Source: a virus. Taken from it: 64,000 bases of DNA. The notes under the pieces were generated by a model that was given only the letters and a program-made list of their open reading frames with translations, did no database searches and was not told where the DNA came from. The position numbers and the translations under genes are program-made. Within the stretch, counting starts at the first letter, position 1; every line of letters starts with the position of its first letter. Positions 2,434 through 63,828 of this stretch are shown one piece after another. Where the stretch lies: IMG/VR virus record IMGVR_UViG_3300044611_002466, positions 124,231-188,230 of that record. The stretch is one strand, 5' to 3'.

Positions 2434-2462
2434 CTTATGACCCCCTTCCCGCCCAACTTTAG
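2434..2462 (-). promoter_or_regulatory. putative promoter CTAAAGTTG-N11-GGTCATAAG
   Basis: Closest match in the window to the extended sigma-28 consensus TAAAGTTT-N11-GCCGATAA. Confidence 0.65.
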
Positions 2463-10587: not shown

Positions 10588-11919
10588 ATGCCTACGGACG
10601 CGCGAGGGGTGTTGACGGTCATGGGTCCTCCCGGGGAGTGGTCGGGGGCAGTCGCGTCGAGCGTCTCCCCCGAGCAGCGGCAGGACCTCTTGCGTGCCTG
10701 GCGTGCGATGTCCGCCGAGGAGCGGAACGAGATCGTCTCGAAGTGGCGCAAGCACTTCGAGACGCCGGACGACAAGACGGCGGCCGTCGAGTACCGAGGG
10801 CACACGTTCCCTGGCTACAACCAACCCGTCGAGTCCGATCAGAGGGACAAGAAGATGATGGTCCTGGCGAAGAAGGGGGACGAGGTCCGCCTTCTTCACT
10901 TCGGACAGAAGGGCTACAAGCACAACTACAGTCCAGACGCGAAGAAGGACTACCTCACCCGCTCGGCTGGCATCCGCAACGGGAGTGGTGAGCTGACCAA
11001 AGACGATCCCTTCAGCCCGAACTACTGGGCACGACGCGTGCTCTGGCCCGCTGGAAGGACGGGGAACGGCGAGAGCGGACCGACCAAGACGGCCGCGCTT
11101 ATGGGGTCGAAGGAGCATCGACAGGCGACACACCGCGTCGACGCGCACTTCCGCAGCAGCGATCCCGAGAAGTGGAGCACCCTCATGGACAGTGTGAAGC
11201 GCAAGTCCTTCGTGGCCGCCGTGAAGCAGGACACCCGCGCGGATCCCAAGTTCGAGCGCCACGTCGATCAGATGAACCGGCTCCTCACGGGCACCAAGGT
11301 CGACCAAGTCAGCGTCGGCGACGGCGTGAAGTACGACATCATGCGTCTGCGTGGCGGCGGGTACGGGTGTACCTGCCCAGACTGGCGCTACAAGAAGTCC
11401 GTCGCCTCCGAAGGAGCTCAGGACTGCAAGCACATCGTCGCCTGGAAGGGGATGCGCTCGTTCAAGAAGACCGCCTCGGTCCTCTCCACGCTGGCCGCTC
11501 ACCCGAAGAGCCTCTTCACTGCGGGCACGGCCGCTGGCGTGGGCGCCCTGGCCCTGGGCCTGCGCCACAACGCCAAGAGCACCCAGTTCACGCCAGCACA
11601 GAAGCAGATGCGAAGCACCGCCATGCACGAGGTCGCCGGTCTCGGGATGCTGGCCAGTCCCTACGTCGTCGGCTTGGCTGAGGCTGGGGCGGAGGCCCTG
11701 GGGTCGCGCTCGGGGCGTGTGGGCATGGCAGCGCGCGCCGCCCACAGCGTACTCCAGCCCCTCTCCCACGTGATGCACGGCGAGGGTCACGCCGCCCCCG
11801 TCCTTCACCGCGCGAACGAGCTCCTCGGGCTGGGCGTTCTGATGCGACCCGCGCTGCAAGAGATGCACCACCTGGGCGCACGCGCAAAGAAGCACGCCAG
11901 CCTGCTCGCGGGGATGTGA
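10588..11919 (+). CDS. multidomain probable head protein: DUF5754-like domain, SWIM Zn finger and hydrophobic C-terminus, separated by KTA[A/S]
   Basis: KKMMVL...HFGQKGYKHNY...YLTRSAG...FSPNYWARRVLW; YGCTCPDW...CKH. Confidence 0.75.
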   Translation: MPTDARGVLTVMGPPGEWSGAVASSVSPEQRQDLLRAWRAMSAEERNEIVSKWRKHFETPDDKTAAVEYRGHTFPGYNQPVESDQRDKKMMVLAKKGDEVRLLHFGQKGYKHNYSPDAKKDYLTRSAGIRNGSGELTKDDPFSPNYWARRVLWPAGRTGNGESGPTKTAALMGSKEHRQATHRVDAHFRSSDPEKWSTLMDSVKRKSFVAAVKQDTRADPKFERHVDQMNRLLTGTKVDQVSVGDGVKYDIMRLRGGGYGCTCPDWRYKKSVASEGAQDCKHIVAWKGMRSFKKTASVLSTLAAHPKSLFTAGTAAGVGALALGLRHNAKSTQFTPAQKQMRSTAMHEVAGLGMLASPYVVGLAEAGAEALGSRSGRVGMAARAAHSVLQPLSHVMHGEGHAAPVLHRANELLGLGVLMRPALQEMHHLGARAKKHASLLAGM

Positions 11920-18982: not shown

Positions 18983-19010
18983 CTTATGCGGCATTTTCGA
19001 GCACAGTTAA
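18983..19010 (-). promoter_or_regulatory. putative promoter TTAA-N15-CCGCATAAG
   Basis: Intergenic; same spacing as 1077 and 2434. Confidence 0.55.
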
Positions 19011-19389: not shown

Positions 19390-19398
19390 CTTATGACC
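19390..19398 (-). promoter_or_regulatory. putative -10 element GGTCATAAG
   Basis: 17 nt upstream of the ATG at 19373. Confidence 0.55.
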
Positions 19399-19423
19399 CG
19401 GAAGGGCGCCCTCTTGCGCGGGC

Positions 19424-19432
19424 TGCTATGCT
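19424..19432 (+). promoter_or_regulatory. extended -10 element TGCTATGCT, probably leaderless
   Basis: TGn-TAnnnT 6 nt before the ATG at 19439; no SD sequence. Confidence 0.5.
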
Positions 19433-19438
19433 ACCGGC

Positions 19439-22980: not shown

Positions 22981-24269
22981 TGGCCGACATCCAGGGGGCT
23001 GGGGCACCGGTGGCCGTGCTGATCGAGACCGACCTCTCCGTCGTGGCGGCCTCCAAGAGCCCCACGCTGAACGAGAGCACCACCGGCGCGGCCGGGCAGC
23101 AGCGGATGGTCCGGCGCCCTATGCGCGGGATTCAGCTCAAGTCGGAGACGTTCGCGACGCTGGCCCTGTCCTCGTCGGTCCTCAACTTGAAGAACTCGAG
23201 CGCCCCCTCCACCGGGGCCAGCTTCACGTCCAACTTCCTCCTTCAGTCCGTCTCAGAAGGCCGGCAGGAGAAGTTCCAGACCGTCCCCACCTTCGGCGCC
23301 ACGTACGGGTTCTTCTACGGAGAGCAGCCGCGTATCGTCTCCTGCCAGGCGATCCTCCTCAACACCGCGGACTTCCAGTGGGAGGCTGAGTGGTGGGAGA
23401 ACTACGACCAGTACTTGCGCGGGACACGTCTGGTGGATCGAGGGATGACCGTGACCCTGACGTATGAAGACGTGGTGCTCGAGGGGTACCTCGTGAGCGC
23501 CAGCGTCTCGAAGGGGGAGCCCAACCCCTGGGCCGTGAACCTCTCCTTCAACATGTGGGTGACGCGGGTCACGTACCTGATCTCGCCGGTGGGAGCCGGG
23601 AACATCGACCCGATTCACCTGCGTGCGACGCAGACCCAGTACGACGAGTTCGAGTCCAGCGAGGGGCTCGGCAGCGCGCCTTCCATGTTGGCGGAGGTCC
23701 GCGCCCGGAACATCGCGTCGCTCGCCTCAGGGGAGGCCACGGGGCTCCTCGGGGCCCTGGCTCGTGCAGCGCACGCGGTACAAGAGCTCTCCGATAGGGT
23801 GAGCACCGCTGTGGACAACGCGCTGGACTGGCTCTACGGCCGGAACATGGTCATCCCGGTGGGGTTCGCCACGTCGGACGACCAGCCCGGCGTCGCCATG
23901 ATGGCAGACGGGTCGGGAATGGTGCTGCTGCCCAACGGACTCACCGCGGGCACCGCGACCATCCGGGCTCCCATACGCGTCGCCCCGCTGGTTCAGGTGG
24001 TGGGCGACTTCAACTACTTCGACCACAACGTCGACGAGTACCCGGCTCGGTTCCAGGCAGGGGTGCAGTTGCTCGACATCTCCGTGATGGAATCAGCAGA
24101 TCCGGCCATTGCCTTCGCGGAGAAGATGTTCAAGAACTTCGGCATCGACGTCAGCAATGACGAGGGACAGCAGACGAGTGCCGTGATGCAGGCCCTCGGG
24201 CGCGTCACCTTCGCTGCGATCTCCTACACCGCCACAGTGATTACGTCGTCCGACACGGAAGGCACATGA
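22980..24269 (+). CDS. virion structural protein (tail tube initiator/baseplate-like)
   Basis: Position between the TMP and the hub; beta-rich N-terminal half. Confidence 0.55.
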   Translation: MADIQGAGAPVAVLIETDLSVVAASKSPTLNESTTGAAGQQRMVRRPMRGIQLKSETFATLALSSSVLNLKNSSAPSTGASFTSNFLLQSVSEGRQEKFQTVPTFGATYGFFYGEQPRIVSCQAILLNTADFQWEAEWWENYDQYLRGTRLVDRGMTVTLTYEDVVLEGYLVSASVSKGEPNPWAVNLSFNMWVTRVTYLISPVGAGNIDPIHLRATQTQYDEFESSEGLGSAPSMLAEVRARNIASLASGEATGLLGALARAAHAVQELSDRVSTAVDNALDWLYGRNMVIPVGFATSDDQPGVAMMADGSGMVLLPNGLTAGTATIRAPIRVAPLVQVVGDFNYFDHNVDEYPARFQAGVQLLDISVMESADPAIAFAEKMFKNFGIDVSNDEGQQTSAVMQALGRVTFAAISYTATVITSSDTEGT

Positions 24270-27200
24270 GTCAGATCGGAAGAGCGGAACCGCTGCACCT
24301 ACGGCTCTTCATAGAGGGCGTAGAAGTGCCGGTTATCAGCGCCGTCGTCAGCGCGAACGAAGGTGCTCCGGCGAGCGCGCAGATCGAGGTGGTCCCCGCC
24401 AACTCCGGCCTGCATCTCGTCGCGCGGAGCAAGGTCAACCTCTTCTTCTACGACGGAGGCGACGGGATAGCCATCCCCGACGCCGACATCGCTGCCAACG
24501 CTAAGGGCACGCGCATGCCCTCCGACGAGCGGAGCCTCCTGGGGAGCGGCTACTACCAGCTGTTCTCCGGGGAGCTCTTCTCGCTCACCTACTCGAAGTC
24601 GGGGGCAGGAGCCCGGAGCCTGGTGCTCCAGTGTCTGGATGACAGCAACAACTGGGACACGTCCTTTCTGTACACGCTGCGCTACTCCGCCGATGCCGAA
24701 GAGGGTGCCGTTGCGGGCAGCACGATGAACATGATGGGGATCAGCGCGCCCACGTCTGATGACATCATCACCGACCCCGCATCGATCATCAGTACGATCT
24801 CCAAGCGTCAGCAGGCGCTCAACCCCTCCGTGGCAGGATCCAAGGGGATGCTCGGGGGGCTGCTTGGGATCTTGGAGTTGATCGGCGGCGTAGCTGGGCA
24901 ATACGCAGGGATGACAGCTTGGCACACCATCCAGGAGGTACGCGTCCGCCTGATGGACCAGATCGCAGCCGACGACGGCAACACCGCGGTCGAGGTCTTC
25001 AACGAGACAGCGTTCGATCACTGGCTCTTGGCGGGGGTCTCCGACCTCGGCACGGTCGTCAGCTTCCGAACTGTCGTCGACCTGATCAACCAGTTCATCT
25101 ACTACACGGTCTCACCGAATCCGGTGGGTGTGTACGTCCCCGGGGATGGTGGAGTCCCGAAGTGGCCGGACGGCCTCTTCGACAAGGCGGAGTCGGTCTC
25201 CAAGGACAGCGAGACGGGGGTGGACGCCGGCCTTGATCCGGACTTTGCCACTCTCAAGAACGCCATCTTGGCGTACTTGATCAACGACCTGGGGTGGAAC
25301 GGTGCGGTGGGCGGCAAGCCAAAGGCCCGCATGTCCAGCGGGTTTCGGAATAGCGCCGAGCAGGCAGCCCTTACGCAGGGCACGGAACGGGAGGGACAGA
25401 CACCAAGCAGCGCGCACATGGTCGGGTTTGCGGCTGACTTCAGCACAGCAGCGGGAATCGGGTTCTGCTACAAGAACAAGCCGTCCGACTCCAAGGGTGC
25501 GAGCCTTCACAGACGCCTGATCTGGGCGGCGACCAAGTATGGACTCTCGGACGCCCAGAGCATCTACACGAAGGGGGTGGAGAAGGGGCTTCTGACTCTC
25601 GAGGAGGTCGGGCGCGCGAAGCAGATGGTCGACTTCTACAGGGACCTGCAGAAGGCCGTCAGAGAGCGCGGGCAGGGGAAGGTGACCTGGGGCGGTGACT
25701 GGGACTCGTCGGACGCGTGGCTGTCGTTGTACGGGCTCGGCGGTGACTGTGTGCACACCGAGATGACGGGCTGGCGGAACAAGGTCAAGAACAAGGAGGG
25801 GTCGACCACTTCACCGGCCGATCTCAGCGGCTACTACTCCGGCCTCATGAACCGCGAGCGCCTCTTCACGCAGTTCTTCCATCCGGACATCTGGTTTGCC
25901 TCTCCGCCAGCGTGCAACGTGATCTTCCCGGAGGAGGTCACCACGCTCTCGTTCAGCCGCGACTTCATGCGGGAGACGACGCGCCTGCAGCTCTCGACCG
26001 TCAACGCGATTGTCGGGGACTCGACTCTCCTGAACCAGAACTTCTTCGCACCGAAGGTCGACGCGGCCCTCAACCTGACCAGCGGCGGACTTGGTACGGC
26101 GGCGCGCGCCTTCATCCTGCCGCACGAGAAGTTCTCGGGCATCGTCCCGAAGCTCGAGAAGCTCTCCGACCTCTCCCTCTACGTCAGGCTCTCGGAGGAG
26201 CAGCACCACGAAGAGGCGCACGCTGATGTCGCTGAAACGACGAAGGCCGCCGCGGAGCCCTCCGCCGAGAAGAAGGAGACCGAGCTCGAGGTCTGGGCCG
26301 ACCGCACGGCGGCCTTCACCTTCCTCTCGCATCGGTATGACGCGCGCTCCCTGTCCGTGTCGATGAAGTTCACCCCGCGCCTGGCGGTGGGGTTCCCCGC
26401 GCTGGTCATCGACCGCACGAACCCGGAGACCACGGAGGACGAGCAGGCGGCCCCCTCTACGAGCGCGTTCTCGCCGAACCACTTCCTCGGCACCATCCGG
26501 GCGCTGACGCACTCTGTCACGCAGGATGGAGGAGCCACGTCGGTTCAGCTGAGCCACGTGCGGCTCCACAAGGCGTCGATGGATGACCTGTTCGCATCGG
26601 GAACCTACGCGAACAAGGGGATCATGTCCGTGCAGGTGGTCCCGGCTCCAGCCTCGCCGCGCACGATCAAGAACACTGACACCATGACCACGCAGACCCT
26701 CAAGTGGATTGTGGGGGTACACGAGGCGATGAGCCGGTACAAGCTCGACATCGCCAAGCCAGACATGGCAGGTCCGGCAGGCCGGCCGCTGCAAGGCGCG
26801 ATCACCATCGTGAAGGTGCTGCCCGAGGGCAGCCTCGTGACGTGGTCCACGAACGACGGCGGTCCTGGCAGCTTCGCGGGCCCCCGGATCGAGGAGTCCC
26901 TGCCCTTCTCCAGCATCACCTTCACGGAGCCGGACGGGGACCCGGCCTACCTACCGCTCGAGGAGGCGATCAAGCCAGCCTGGATGTCGGAGACCTACTC
27001 GAACAAGCTCATCGGTGGCTTCTACCGTCAGATCCTCGGTTGTGGTTCGATTCACGACCTGTACCCGAACGTCCCCCCGGGCAAGGCCCCGGACGGCACA
27101 CCCTACGCGAGCACGAGCGTAGAGCGTGTGACGGAAGCGCTGGTTGCGGAGTACACGTCGCAGTCCGATGGCGGGTACCTGGGGCACACCTTCATCCACG

Positions 27201-27493
27201 GCAAGACGCGGCGCAGCTACGCCAGCATCGCGCAGGTGTTCGGCTACTGGACGGGGACCGGGGAGGCCCGCAAGCATGTGCAGGGGTTCTACACGCAGTC
27301 CATCGGCTGGGACGAGGGGTACTCCCGGCTTGCGAAGGACCGCTGGGAGTGGATGGCGAACGCCGCCGGTACGCTGGTGAACACGACGGAGCCCAACCAG
27401 ATTCGTCCCGAGCTCGACCCCCGCAGAGGGCGATACGGCCCTGCGCTCGCCTACCGTGACGAGTTGGCGCGGGCCCTGGGGCGCCGAGGGTAG
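24266..27493 (+). CDS. baseplate hub-like protein with embedded M15 (Zn D,D/L,D-peptidase) domain
   Basis: Hub-type N-terminus LRLFIEGVEV...; SGFRNSAEQ...SAHMVGFAADF...WGGDW...DCVHTE. Confidence 0.75.
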   Translation: MSQIGRAEPLHLRLFIEGVEVPVISAVVSANEGAPASAQIEVVPANSGLHLVARSKVNLFFYDGGDGIAIPDADIAANAKGTRMPSDERSLLGSGYYQLFSGELFSLTYSKSGAGARSLVLQCLDDSNNWDTSFLYTLRYSADAEEGAVAGSTMNMMGISAPTSDDIITDPASIISTISKRQQALNPSVAGSKGMLGGLLGILELIGGVAGQYAGMTAWHTIQEVRVRLMDQIAADDGNTAVEVFNETAFDHWLLAGVSDLGTVVSFRTVVDLINQFIYYTVSPNPVGVYVPGDGGVPKWPDGLFDKAESVSKDSETGVDAGLDPDFATLKNAILAYLINDLGWNGAVGGKPKARMSSGFRNSAEQAALTQGTEREGQTPSSAHMVGFAADFSTAAGIGFCYKNKPSDSKGASLHRRLIWAATKYGLSDAQSIYTKGVEKGLLTLEEVGRAKQMVDFYRDLQKAVRERGQGKVTWGGDWDSSDAWLSLYGLGGDCVHTEMTGWRNKVKNKEGSTTSPADLSGYYSGLMNRERLFTQFFHPDIWFASPPACNVIFPEEVTTLSFSRDFMRETTRLQLSTVNAIVGDSTLLNQNFFAPKVDAALNLTSGGLGTAARAFILPHEKFSGIVPKLEKLSDLSLYVRLSEEQHHEEAHADVAETTKAAAEPSAEKKETELEVWADRTAAFTFLSHRYDARSLSVSMKFTPRLAVGFPALVIDRTNPETTEDEQAAPSTSAFSPNHFLGTIRALTHSVTQDGGATSVQLSHVRLHKASMDDLFASGTYANKGIMSVQVVPAPASPRTIKNTDTMTTQTLKWIVGVHEAMSRYKLDIAKPDMAGPAGRPLQGAITIVKVLPEGSLVTWSTNDGGPGSFAGPRIEESLPFSSITFTEPDGDPAYLPLEEAIKPAWMSETYSNKLIGGFYRQILGCGSIHDLYPNVPPGKAPDGTPYASTSVERVTEALVAEYTSQSDGGYLGHTFIHGKTRRSYASIAQVFGYWTGTGEARKHVQGFYTQSIGWDEGYSRLAKDRWEWMANAAGTLVNTTEPNQIRPELDPRRGRYGPALAYRDELARALGRRG

Positions 27494-27530: not shown

Positions 27531-27740
27531 ATGCCCACCACCCCGCTCTCGCTCGACACGCTTCGCTCCTTCTCCGCCGAGGTACAGAAGGAGGCTGCCG
27601 CCACGCTCCCGGACAAATGGACCGCGGCGGCCCTCATGGGCGGAGGGGCCGTAGGGGCTCATGTGCTCCAGAAGGCGTTCAAGGACTGGAAGAACGGCCG
27701 CCAGCTGCGAGTGCAGCAGTCCGGCTACGGGGGGTTCTGA
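27531..27740 (+). CDS. small probable virion protein with glycine-rich hydrophobic segment
   Basis: GAGG RBS; SFSAEVQKEAA followed by ALMGGGAVGAHV. Confidence 0.75.
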   Translation: MPTTPLSLDTLRSFSAEVQKEAAATLPDKWTAAALMGGGAVGAHVLQKAFKDWKNGRQLRVQQSGYGGF

Positions 27741-28258
27741 TGGACACACCGCAGAAGAAGGTAGACCTCAAAGATTCCCCGGCGCTGGCGGCGTACGCCA
27801 AGTGGCGGCCACGACTGCGTCGCGCTGCTTCGTGGGCGTTTCCCGCCGCGGCGGTAGGCAAGGCGGTTGGAGTCGCAACGAACCCCATCATCGGTCTTAC
27901 GATCGGCGCGGGGCTCGCTGGCGCGGCGGATGCCACGCTCGAGGAGAAGCTCAGGCAGCTGAAGGACCACAAGGCGCGGACCCTCGTGCAACGCGGATTC
28001 GAGGAGACCCACATGGGCAAGAAGGCTGGCATCGACGTCGACCCGTTCACCACCTCGGCCATCACCGCCGCAGAGCTCGAGACGAACCTCGCGCTCACAG
28101 GCCTCACGCGCAAGAGAGACGAGTTCGCCTCCCGGGCGAGCAGTCAGCTGTCGGACTACTTCCCGGCCGCGGGCGGCCAGGTGAGCGGCTACGGGCGCGG
28201 CCTGCGCCTGTCGACCGGACAGGGCTCGATCGCGCAGATGCTCGCTGGTTTGAGGTAG
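27740..28258 (+). CDS. probable virion protein with glycine-zipper segment
   Basis: TGATG coupling; IIGLTIGAGLAGAA; MGKKAG. Confidence 0.75.
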   Translation: MDTPQKKVDLKDSPALAAYAKWRPRLRRAASWAFPAAAVGKAVGVATNPIIGLTIGAGLAGAADATLEEKLRQLKDHKARTLVQRGFEETHMGKKAGIDVDPFTTSAITAAELETNLALTGLTRKRDEFASRASSQLSDYFPAAGGQVSGYGRGLRLSTGQGSIAQMLAGLR

Positions 28259-28262
28259 GACG

Positions 28263-29138
28263 ATGGGGCTCCTGCTGCGCGCCTTCGAGAAGCGGGCAAC
28301 GTCGGTGGAGACACCTGCCGTACCGGCGCTCGTTGTACCGCAGCCGCCTCCGCCGGCCGAGCAGTGGCATCCCGAGTGGGCGCCGCAGGCCGGATGGCAC
28401 GGCGAGGGGAACCCCGGGGGCTGGAGGCGTCCGGCTCTTGAGGCGCGGCGGAAGGAGCTCTTCCTGTGGGATCAGTGGAAGAAGGGGGGCCAGACCCCCG
28501 AGCTCTCCGCCCCTCTCATGAAGTCCCTGCGGCCGGTCATCTACTCGCAAGGGGTGCGTGCCTGGATCAACCGAGTGCCGGTGCAGCCCGCCGTCCTCGA
28601 GTCCAAGGCGGTGCAGCTGGCGCTGGGCGCGCTGGAGTCGTACAACCCGGCAGCGGCACAGCTCAACACCCACCTCACGATCACCCTGAAGGGGATGCAC
28701 CGATTCGCCACGTCACGGCAGAACATGACGCGGCTGACGGAGGCCCGCCGTCGCCTGGTCGGTCCTTACCAGCGCGCCCTCGCGCGCCTGAAGGACAAGC
28801 TGGAGCGAGAGCCGAGCGTCCTCGAGCTCGCGGACGAGATGAAGGAGACTCCGGACAACGTGGAGAAGCTCCTGCTGGAGATGAAGGACGACCTCATGTC
28901 CTCCGGGACGATGAACGACCCCTTCCTCGACGAGACGCCGGAGTCCCGCCTCAAGCTGCTGCTCATCCGATACAGCTTGACCCCCGAAGAGGGGACCGTG
29001 TTCGACTACCTCATGGGTCAGGGCGGCAAGCCCCGCGTCGAGAGCCCTGGCGAAATCGCAAAGCGTGAGGGGTGGTCCAGCTCCAAGGTCTCCCAGCTGA
29101 AGAACGCGATCATGCGGAAGTGGAAGGGCGTCGCATGA
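28263..29138 (+). CDS. RNA polymerase sigma factor, sigma-70 family group 3 (FliA/sigma-28-like), with N-terminal extension
   Basis: Region 2 ALGALESYNP...LNTHL; region 3 LKDKLEREPSVLELADEM; region 4 LTPEEGTVF...EIAKREGWSSSKVSQL (compare FliA SRVSQL). Confidence 0.8.
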   Translation: MGLLLRAFEKRATSVETPAVPALVVPQPPPPAEQWHPEWAPQAGWHGEGNPGGWRRPALEARRKELFLWDQWKKGGQTPELSAPLMKSLRPVIYSQGVRAWINRVPVQPAVLESKAVQLALGALESYNPAAAQLNTHLTITLKGMHRFATSRQNMTRLTEARRRLVGPYQRALARLKDKLEREPSVLELADEMKETPDNVEKLLLEMKDDLMSSGTMNDPFLDETPESRLKLLLIRYSLTPEEGTVFDYLMGQGGKPRVESPGEIAKREGWSSSKVSQLKNAIMRKWKGVA

Positions 29139-29374
29139 GTAGCCCCGAGCTTCAGACGTTCGTCGGCGAGCTCGAGACGGCGCTGCTCGAGCACCTCGAC
29201 GCGGAGACCGACCGCGTCAAGAGCGAGCGCGACTTCCTCCTCGCGGTGTACAACGGACGCACGGACGGGGCCACCACCGAGGATGCCTCGACCGGGTTCG
29301 TGATGCGATACTTGACGGGCATGTTCAACGGGTACGTGCTCGTCGAGAGAGATGTGAGCGCCCCCAGCAGCTGA
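29135..29374 (+). CDS. hypothetical protein, 79 aa
   Basis: ATGA coupling. Confidence 0.75.
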   Translation: MSSPELQTFVGELETALLEHLDAETDRVKSERDFLLAVYNGRTDGATTEDASTGFVMRYLTGMFNGYVLVERDVSAPSS

Positions 29375-63819: not shown

Positions 63820-63828
63820 CTTATGACG
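63820..63828 (-). promoter_or_regulatory. putative -10 element CGTCATAAG upstream of polA
   Basis: 18 nt upstream of the ATG at 63802, before the GGAGG RBS. Confidence 0.55.

Follow-up and report, generated by a model that had tools for sequence, protein, structure and literature searches.

A divergent sigma factor encoded among phage virion genes may be the specificity subunit of a virion-carried phage RNA polymerase

Sigma-70-family factors encoded by lytic phages, such as T4 gp55, SPO1 gp28 and gp33/34 and phiEco32 gp36, redirect the host core RNA polymerase (RNAP) and set promoter specificity; to our knowledge, these phages have no RNAP of their own and their sigmas have not been reported as virion components. 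Other phages bring a polymerase with them. The virion RNAPs of phiKZ-like and AR9 jumbo phages and of N4-like phages are carried in the particle and support host-independent early transcription from phage-specific promoters (PMC7598289; PMC13434306). Iyer et al. (2021) described jumbo phages of group 1 as encoding RNAP without a sigma, and those of group 2 as encoding a sigma without RNAP (PMC7824862). Here we describe a phage genome that encodes both. The sigma gene occupies positions 28263–29138 of the plus strand in the last 64 kb (hereafter the window, 64,000 nucleotides) of the 188,230-bp IMG/VR virus record IMGVR_UViG_3300044611_002466, a record that is complete by the CheckV estimate and has a guanine-plus-cytosine (GC) content of 63–69%. 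Coordinates refer to the window unless they are marked as genome positions. The gene codes for a protein of 291 amino acids (aa) that we consider, with a little more than even confidence, to be the specificity subunit of the phage's own beta-beta' RNAP, carried in the virion and used in the next infection on early and middle genes preceded by a YATAAG motif.

The preliminary description of this DNA had recognized a sigma factor in the open reading frame (ORF), with regions 2, 3 and 4 discernible, and this assignment holds on closer analysis: the product is a genuine, very divergent three-domain member of the sigma-70 family with a group 3-like architecture. Pfam Sigma70_r3 matches residues 169–206 with 28.7 bits (cut-off 25.3), and PHROG 351 ('RNA polymerase sigma factor') matches the ORF with an expectation value (E) of 4e-6. 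Eighteen metagenomic homologues are 51–90% identical to it, 13 of which also contain Sigma70_r3, and all PDB matches of a 16-homologue profile are sigma factors, aligned over regions 2.2–3.1. In the AlphaFold2 model, with a mean predicted local distance difference test score (pLDDT) of 77, the chain is divided into sigma2 (residues 59–143), sigma3 (145–213) and sigma4 (227–290), and each of the 35 Foldseek matches in the PDB at E ≤ 1e-3 is a sigma factor (SigD, SigB, RpoS, WhiG, sigma32, SigA and FliA). On the plus strand these domains correspond to 28437–28691 (sigma2, regions 1.2/2.1–2.4, placed by the profile alignment to RpoS and the predicted helices), 28695–28901 (sigma3, placed by the Pfam match) and 28941–29132 (sigma4, placed by the predicted helices of residues 227–290). 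Neither Pfam Sigma70_r2 nor Sigma70_r4 matches the protein itself; relatives match Sigma70_r2 weakly, and Sigma70_r4 matches the aligned relative from contig G003 (L032) with 33.5 bits (cut-off 24.1). The C-terminal SKVSQL segment pointed out earlier lies in the recognition helix of the sigma4 helix-turn-helix, SKVSQLKNAI, and is conserved: the pattern [KR]VSQ[LI] is kept in all clades, with V276 and S277 invariant and Q278 nearly so.

What is not supported is a specific 'FliA-like' or sigma-28-like assignment. RpoS and SigA are the best PDB sequence matches of the profile (2e-4), ahead of FliA (1.3e-3). The best Foldseek match is the Bacillus subtilis SigD model (2e-6), with RpoS, SigB, sigma32 and WhiG close behind, and the fold is that of an ordinary family member. 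Promoters of the FliA/sigma-28 subfamily have the form TAAA-N15-GCCGATAA; the motif discussed below, G[GT][CT]ATAAG, has the ATAA core alone in common with the sigma-28 -10 element.

A candidate partner is encoded in the same genome. A single-chain, fused beta-beta' RNAP of 2973 aa lies outside the window in the plus-strand block, at genome 14146–23067 (L009:147–9068), where Pfam recognizes the beta domains Rpb2_6 (E 1.5e-65) and Rpb2_3 and the beta' domains Rpb1_2 and Rpb1_5. Its beta' part contains a LAGLIDADG intein; the relatives' forms are intein-free and 2044–2147 aa long. Neither of the RNAP alpha-subunit domains was found in the genome, and ORF 28263–29138 is its only clear sigma. Five IMG/VR contigs carry a relative of this sigma, two of them close and three at 31–34% identity, and a beta-beta' frame is present in all five, four of which are fragments with an estimated completeness of 30–50%. 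In G003 and G005 the hub gene, the sigma gene, a gene for a protein of 800 or 821 aa and the RNAP gene follow one another in this order on one strand, as one operon, with gaps of 1–9 nucleotides (nt) in G003 and of 203 nt before the RNAP gene in G005. This co-occurrence and adjacency point to the phage RNAP rather than the host core as the partner, and on gene content we regard a sigma of the phage enzyme as much more likely than a sigma for the host core.

Structure prediction is consistent with such a partnership. A complex model of the sigma with RNAP residues 1085–1445 places sigma2 residues 72–125 on the clamp helices (residues 1230–1264) with a score of 0.63, the best of three controls reaching 0.04; separate runs agree on at least 42% of contacts and the pLDDT of the partner is at least 69. 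The mark applied to this score is reached by 58 of 80 solved complexes and by 2 of 110 mismatched pairs. The sigma2/clamp interface has been solved many times for cellular enzymes and the pass may reflect memory of those structures, so the model is best read as showing a sigma-docking surface that the phage RNAP is predicted to keep, not the binding of this pair.

A blastn search of the locus against 50,697 phage records gave no match, and a protein search alone reached Salmonella phage Arash, whose gp10 is the only match in that collection (27% identity, 77% query coverage, E 8e-11). The gp10-like sigma family is almost wholly uncultured; a full hidden Markov model search returned 415 cluster representatives (50% identity) at E ≤ 1e-30, a number that rises to 1513 at E ≤ 1e-10. 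Arash gp10, annotated as 'RNA polymerase sigma factor RpoS' (OQ632216; PMC10585845), occupies the corresponding position in its genome, after the hub gene gp8 and a small ORF. The two phages also have in common the RNAP (33% identity over ~1190 aa), terminase, a protease-like head protein, the major capsid protein, a helicase, the hub and the baseplate wedge, as well as a layout in which structural, RNAP and sigma genes occupy one strand and replication, nucleotide-metabolism, tRNA and small unknown genes the other. They differ in four respects: (i) gp10 has 234 aa and lacks the N-terminal extension and the K-x-A leader, both of which are present in the 291-aa sigma; (ii) the Arash RNAP is split in two genes and is fused here; (iii) Arash has a second sigma, gp196 (Sigma70_r2, E 6e-10), whereas no second clear sigma is found in this genome; and (iv) GC content is 52% in Arash and 66% in this phage, and the hosts are different.

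Packaging of the sigma, as put forward in the preliminary description, finds indirect support in the Arash homologue. Liquid chromatography–mass spectrometry of purified Arash particles detected Gp10 with 24 unique peptides, 467 spectra and 100% coverage, together with the RNAP proteins Gp206 (128 unique peptides and 3516 spectra, the highest number of spectra of all proteins) and Gp216 (40 unique peptides and 1210 spectra) (PMC10585845). In the same data set Gp217 (helicase), the major capsid protein and the portal protein are represented by 38, 30 and 32 unique peptides, the ribonucleotide reductases Gp27 and Gp61 by 11 and 2, and the helicases Gp193 and Gp197 by 2 each; the second sigma, gp196, is missing from the virion protein table (PMC10585845). 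The peptide density of Gp10 per residue is close to that of the capsid protein, and gp196 serves as an internal negative control. The Arash paper itself lists beta, beta' and sigma in the particle proteome and suggests a role in early transcription, without experiments (PMC10585845).

The genes on which such an enzyme could act are marked by a short motif. CATAAG occurs 29 times on the minus strand of the genome and once on the plus strand, with ~18 copies per strand expected from base composition. Nearly all minus-strand copies are intergenic, 5–50 nt ahead of a start codon and usually preceded by G-T or G-G, and none stands ahead of a structural gene, in agreement with the earlier observation that the motif precedes accessory and replication genes. 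The extended form G[GT][CT]ATAAG has 21 minus-strand and no plus-strand copies in this genome, and 24 reverse and no forward copies in its relative G001, where reversed-pattern controls give 0 and 0; YATAAG counts in the distant fragments G003–G005 are not above controls. Within the window, a gGTCATAAG promoter-like element (19390–19395, minus strand) stands before a minus-strand gene of 120 aa that diverges from the virion operon, and L014 and L015 keep the element at the orthologous position; four CATAAG elements (503–508, 1077–1082, 1786–1791 and 2434–2439, minus strand) lie upstream of minus-strand accessory genes, and two more are located at 18983–18988 and 63820–63825. The assignment of minus-strand genes as 'early' follows from their functions.

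Arash has a near-identical motif. The upstream intergenic words most enriched on its minus strand spell tGGTATAAG, and GGTATAAG has ~27 minus-strand copies there against a single plus-strand copy, so that both phages have YATAAG with a G two bases upstream on the strand of the non-structural genes. The housekeeping -10 consensus is TAnnnT, from which the G at the last position, and in this clade also the C at the first, depart. Since two phages of different GC content and host have the motif in common, a conserved phage-encoded reader of YATAAG would be the economical explanation, and because the gp10-type sigma is the only sigma common to both, it is the candidate for that reader. When k-mers were searched for a late promoter of the plus strand, no convincing candidate emerged; hexamers resembling TAnnnT do occur there, without a demonstrated excess over chance.

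Two individual sites deserve mention. The sole plus-strand GGTATAAG in the 173 kb of Arash (L001 11588–11595) lies 4 nt before the start of gp9 and immediately upstream of gp10, and may be an early-type promoter for the Arash sigma or a chance occurrence. In the window, GGGCTGCTATGCT is found at 19412–19438 (plus strand), separated by 6 nt from the ATG with which the virion operon opens, and a relative keeps it in L014 (1040–1112). It may serve late transcription as the -10 element of a leaderless message, or belong as an upstream element to the divergent promoter of the minus strand.

A second sigma candidate in the genome, g118260 (352 aa; genome 118260–119319, minus strand; L010:261–1319), was rejected as a core transcription factor. 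It lies behind a CATAAG promoter, gives a weak Sigma70_r4 match (E 0.011) and aligns to sigma2 with an hhalign probability of 15%. No similarity to Arash gp196, no Pfam hit, no database relatives and no homologue in the 99%-complete G001 were found. The protein could be an accessory, sigma-like factor under rapid evolution; alternatively, chance could account for the similarity.

The sigma described here carries a 58-aa N-terminal extension, including the Pro-rich linker noted previously, which homologue alignment and the AlphaFold2 model resolve into three parts: (i) the N-terminal leader MGLLLRAFEKRAT (28263–28301, plus strand) follows the pattern hydrophobic(-5)-x-x-hydrophobic(-2)-E-K-x-A-[SAT] and is a candidate capsid-targeting or protease signal; its consensus among close homologues is MGLL[LW]xAF[EQ]KxA[AST]; (ii) a Pro/Ala-rich linker of residues 14–34 (28302–28364, plus strand), variable in length and sequence among homologues, is predicted to be disordered (pLDDT < 50); and (iii) a conserved Trp-rich motif, WHPxWxPxAGWxxxxNPxGWRRP, spans residues 35–57 (28365–28433, plus strand; pLDDT 79–88), with nearly invariant W, G, P and N columns, and is missing in distant clades and in Arash. 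This division argues against removal of the whole ~60-aa segment: the signal-like part is confined to residues 1–13, residues 35–57 are conserved and modelled with confidence, and a cleavable part, if there is one, would comprise about 10–13 aa.

Motifs of this kind are frequent in the head-region proteins of the phage, where K-x-A accounts for 11 of the 14 lysines of g8007, 10 of 15 in g45184, 11 of 23 in g33368 and 11 of 20 in g49307. Over-representation is strong in six head-region proteins, with the extended consensus hydrophobic(-2)-E/A(-1)-K-x-A-[SAG]-A. The head-region genes with K-x-A-[SAG] sites lie outside the window, at genome 8007–9038, 33368–34882, 45184–46101, 49307–50377 and 52071–52445, as does the capsid gene (genome 53101–54267), which encodes such a site at residue 28 of the major capsid protein. 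Across the genome, 22 of the 80 proteins encoded on the plus strand have K.A[SAGT] among their first 40 residues, where 4.2 would be expected; of the 157 minus-strand proteins 4 have it, where 6.7 would be expected. This concentration of the N-terminal motif in proteins of the plus-strand virion block suggests that the leader is of virion type, as proposed in the preliminary description. The 22 plus-strand carriers include the major capsid protein (K28), the sigma, the 69-aa protein encoded upstream of it and several small proteins encoded between the protease-like and capsid genes; the N-terminus of g51841, for instance, reads MLSQLLQTIEKRAG, to be compared with that of the sigma given above. 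In the large tail and baseplate proteins encoded on either side of the sigma, K.A[SAGT] sites are few or absent. A weight matrix derived from the six head proteins scores the sigma site at 6.9 bits (empirical p 0.0135 per Lys). K-x-A is probably a prohead-protease site, and the candidate protease, encoded at g47359–49248, matches PHROG 18299 weakly (E 5e-5) and is homologous to Arash gp222.

The leader is also conserved in relatives. It is kept in 14 of 16 close homologues, and among the best 150 of the 415 sigma cluster representatives, 57 divergent clusters have an extension of at least 25 aa, with K.A[SAGT] in the first 30 residues of 29 of them (2.6 expected). Near-variants, for example WVLDKLSAKK, occur in many of the other 28, and ~60% of the 150 have little or no N-terminal extension. 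Linkers between leader and core range from ~10 to ~230 residues across the family; no known domain was found in the extensions of its long members. In the divergent locus L035 the small protein encoded upstream of the sigma begins ...ELEKIAAG, that is, with a leader-type motif. Such a pattern would be expected of a short N-terminal signal, common to the sigma and its small neighbours, that is attached by a flexible tether. One metagenomic family member, P0124 (436 aa), has in its extension a glycine-zipper hydrophobic segment like those of the small upstream proteins, and may be a fusion of a small cargo protein with the sigma.

The surroundings of the sigma gene are those of a virion gene, and the tight spacing between hub, two small proteins, sigma and Ig-like/baseplate genes is as first described. 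An uninterrupted plus-strand run (19439–53824) contains, in order, genes for proteins of 1110, 70 and 429 aa, the 1075-aa hub, proteins of 69 and 172 aa, the sigma, a 79-aa protein, Ig-like and prealbumin-like proteins and a 2217-aa baseplate-wedge protein. The hub, a cell-wall-hydrolase-like virion protein (24266–27493, plus strand), was identified by its tblastn match (30% over 131 aa, E 5e-7) to Arash gp8, annotated as 'cell wall hydrolase, structural protein', and has a weak Peptidase_M15_4 match (E 0.046); its gene precedes the sigma module in every relative examined (L013–L017, L024–L026 and L032–L033). The 69-aa glycine-zipper protein, a gene call at 27531–27740 (plus strand), has the N-terminal leader-type motif FSAEVQ-KEAA at K20. 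The 172-aa hydrophobic, glycine-rich protein (27740–28258, plus strand) has an internal KKAG site; its gene ends 4 nt before the sigma start codon, and counterparts of 174 and 167 aa occupy the same position in relatives. Downstream, the ATG of the 79-aa gene (29135–29374, plus strand) overlaps the sigma stop codon (ATGA), which implies translational coupling, and this 4-nt overlap is kept in relatives. Gene order is identical in relatives with 57–78% sigma identity, and the position of the sigma after the hub is conserved down to 27–34% identity, in keeping with the late-type position claimed for it inside a gap-free virion operon. Scans for sigma-70 promoters and terminators around the sigma gene gave chance-level results only, and Pfam and PHROG scans returned nothing useful for most of the neighbouring and head-region proteins.

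The 69-aa and 172-aa proteins are Gly/Ala-rich and membrane-like and may be ejection or channel proteins; the former is conserved across divergent phages (L035 1626–2060), including its C-terminal GAHVL[QR]KA...GRQ[LY]R. Further upstream in the window, a 443-aa protein (10588–11919, plus strand) with K-[TH]-A-[AS] sites at four lysines (K63, K167, K294 and K435) matches PHROG 220, 'minor head protein and DNA pilot' (E 7e-23), and may be a processed ejection protein.

Our proposal for the function of the sigma begins with its synthesis. The sigma and RNAP genes both lie in the plus-strand block with head, tail and baseplate genes, and the two proteins are therefore probably made late. Polymerase and sigma would then be incorporated into the particle, enter the next cell with the DNA, and there transcribe replication and accessory genes of the minus strand from nG[GT][CT]ATAAG, independently of the host housekeeping sigma; initiation by the phage beta-beta' enzyme and sigma would be expected on GGTCATAAG. 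In this clade the 10–13-aa N-terminal peptide ending in K-x-A-[SAT] would, as a fourth step, mark the sigma for the capsid interior, working like the T4 capsid-targeting sequence on internal proteins. All four steps, from incorporation to targeting, are ones that we infer.

Several observations weigh against this proposal. The virion evidence comes from the homologue Arash gp10, and the Arash preparation lists 116 proteins, including ribonucleotide reductases, kinases and ligases, for which the authors allow carry-over of abundant proteins (PMC10585845). The sigmas of Arash and of G003–G005 have neither leader nor extension, so the leader is not required for the function of the family. In the sigma studied here the K-x-A site has a Thr at +3 and its weight-matrix score, taken by itself, is moderate; that K-x-A is a protease site at all is something we infer, and the candidate protease g47359 is recognized by a single weak PHROG match. 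The RNAP has no N-terminal K-x-A motif, which leaves its own route into the particle unaccounted for. The pairing of the sigma with YATAAG is likewise indirect, as gp196 could read the motif in Arash, and with no plus-strand promoter class found the transcription cascade is incomplete.

A fuller version of the proposal can be formulated, to which we give tentative standing well short of even. Here the alpha-less single-chain RNAP and the sigma would form a self-contained injected machine inside the capsid, the peptide targeting the sigma and the sigma perhaps carrying the RNAP with it. Removal of the peptide by the prohead protease would activate the pro-sigma in particles only, so that the early promoters would be silent late in infection.

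It is unlikely, by our estimate, that the protein is instead a late sigma that works with the phage RNAP or the host core in the producing cell, on late genes of the plus strand, its own operon among them, in the manner of T4 gp55 and SPO1 gp34, its detection in Arash virions being carry-over. The location of the gene in a late structural operon, translationally coupled to virion genes, is what such a factor would have, and the many non-structural enzymes in the Arash preparation, the absence of a leader motif from the RNAP and the many leaderless members of the sigma family all agree with it. However, no common motif was found upstream of the plus-strand operons, and the one promoter-like motif that is both strong and conserved belongs to the other strand; nor does this genome have a second clear sigma to read CATAAG, the weak candidate g118260 being without a homologue in G001. 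In addition, Arash gp10 is on a par with the capsid, portal and RNAP proteins in peptide density while gp196 is absent, and a late sigma leaves the conserved N-terminal K-x-A peptide without a role.

The version favoured in the preliminary description, in which the sigma, packaged and then injected, would direct host core RNAP to CATAAG promoters, seems to us improbable. Most characterized phage sigmas do act on host core, and the sigma2/clamp-helix interface of the predicted complex is generic and would be compatible with binding to host beta'. This phage, however, carries its own catalytic beta-beta' enzyme, sigma and RNAP are found together in every one of the five related contigs and near-adjacent in two clades, and the RNAP subunits of Arash are among the most abundant proteins of the virion preparation. 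Comparably improbable is a T7-like cascade without packaging, in which host RNAP would transcribe the plus strand first and a phage holoenzyme would then turn to the minus-strand YATAAG genes: plus-strand intergenic hexamers of the TAnnnT type (such as TATAGT, TACAGT, TACAAT and TATGCT) and the absence of YATAAG from that strand speak for it, but the hexamers are not shown to be above chance, the programme would be inverted, with head, tail and baseplate genes expressed before those for replication and nucleotide metabolism, and both the leader and the Arash virion data would go unexplained.

Were packaging of the sigma with the phage RNAP true, the system would offer an orthogonal RNAP that is minimal, sigma-dependent and served by a short, defined promoter (G[GT]YATAAG), and a new way for a phage to escape host transcription control and rifampicin-type inhibition, and the activity of the sigma might be gated by capsid maturation. 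These ideas are directly testable, because Arash is a cultured relative.

Comparison with known systems places the locus between several of them. The leader has two functional precedents. The capsid-targeting sequence of T4 IPI–III is a short N-terminal peptide that ends in the motif of the gp21 maturation protease and is removed after delivery, and in Bacillus, removal of an N-terminal pro-sequence activates pro-sigmaE and pro-sigmaK. Neither has sequence homology to the leader described here, and the T4 motif is L/I-x-E as opposed to K-x-A-[SAG]; nothing suggests the involvement of sporulation proteases, for which no search was made. Like T4 gp55, SPO1 gp28 and gp33/34 and phiEco32 gp36, our sigma belongs to the sigma-70 family of a lytic phage and would set promoter specificity, but unlike them it neighbours and co-occurs with a phage RNAP and has a virion-type leader. 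The likeness to the phiKZ, AR9 and N4 systems lies in a polymerase encoded or expressed with late genes, which in our case would likewise be carried in the particle and used for host-independent early transcription. The phiKZ and AR9 enzymes consist of split, highly divergent beta/beta' pieces and the N4 virion RNAP is a single-subunit, T7-like enzyme, whereas the polymerase here is a cellular-type fused beta-beta' accompanied by a canonical three-domain sigma; we know of no sigma-70-family factor for the phiKZ and AR9 enzymes. Our literature searches found no characterized sigma-dependent virion RNAP, and if the fuller version of the proposal is true, this would be the first. What sets the locus apart is not the sigma, whose fold is ordinary, but its setting: a polymerase core that is fused and has no alpha, a place in the virion module, a leader peptide, and a YATAAG promoter found in both phages. 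In this lineage a cellular-type core of that kind occurs together with a canonical sigma2-3-4 factor, both encoded among virion genes.

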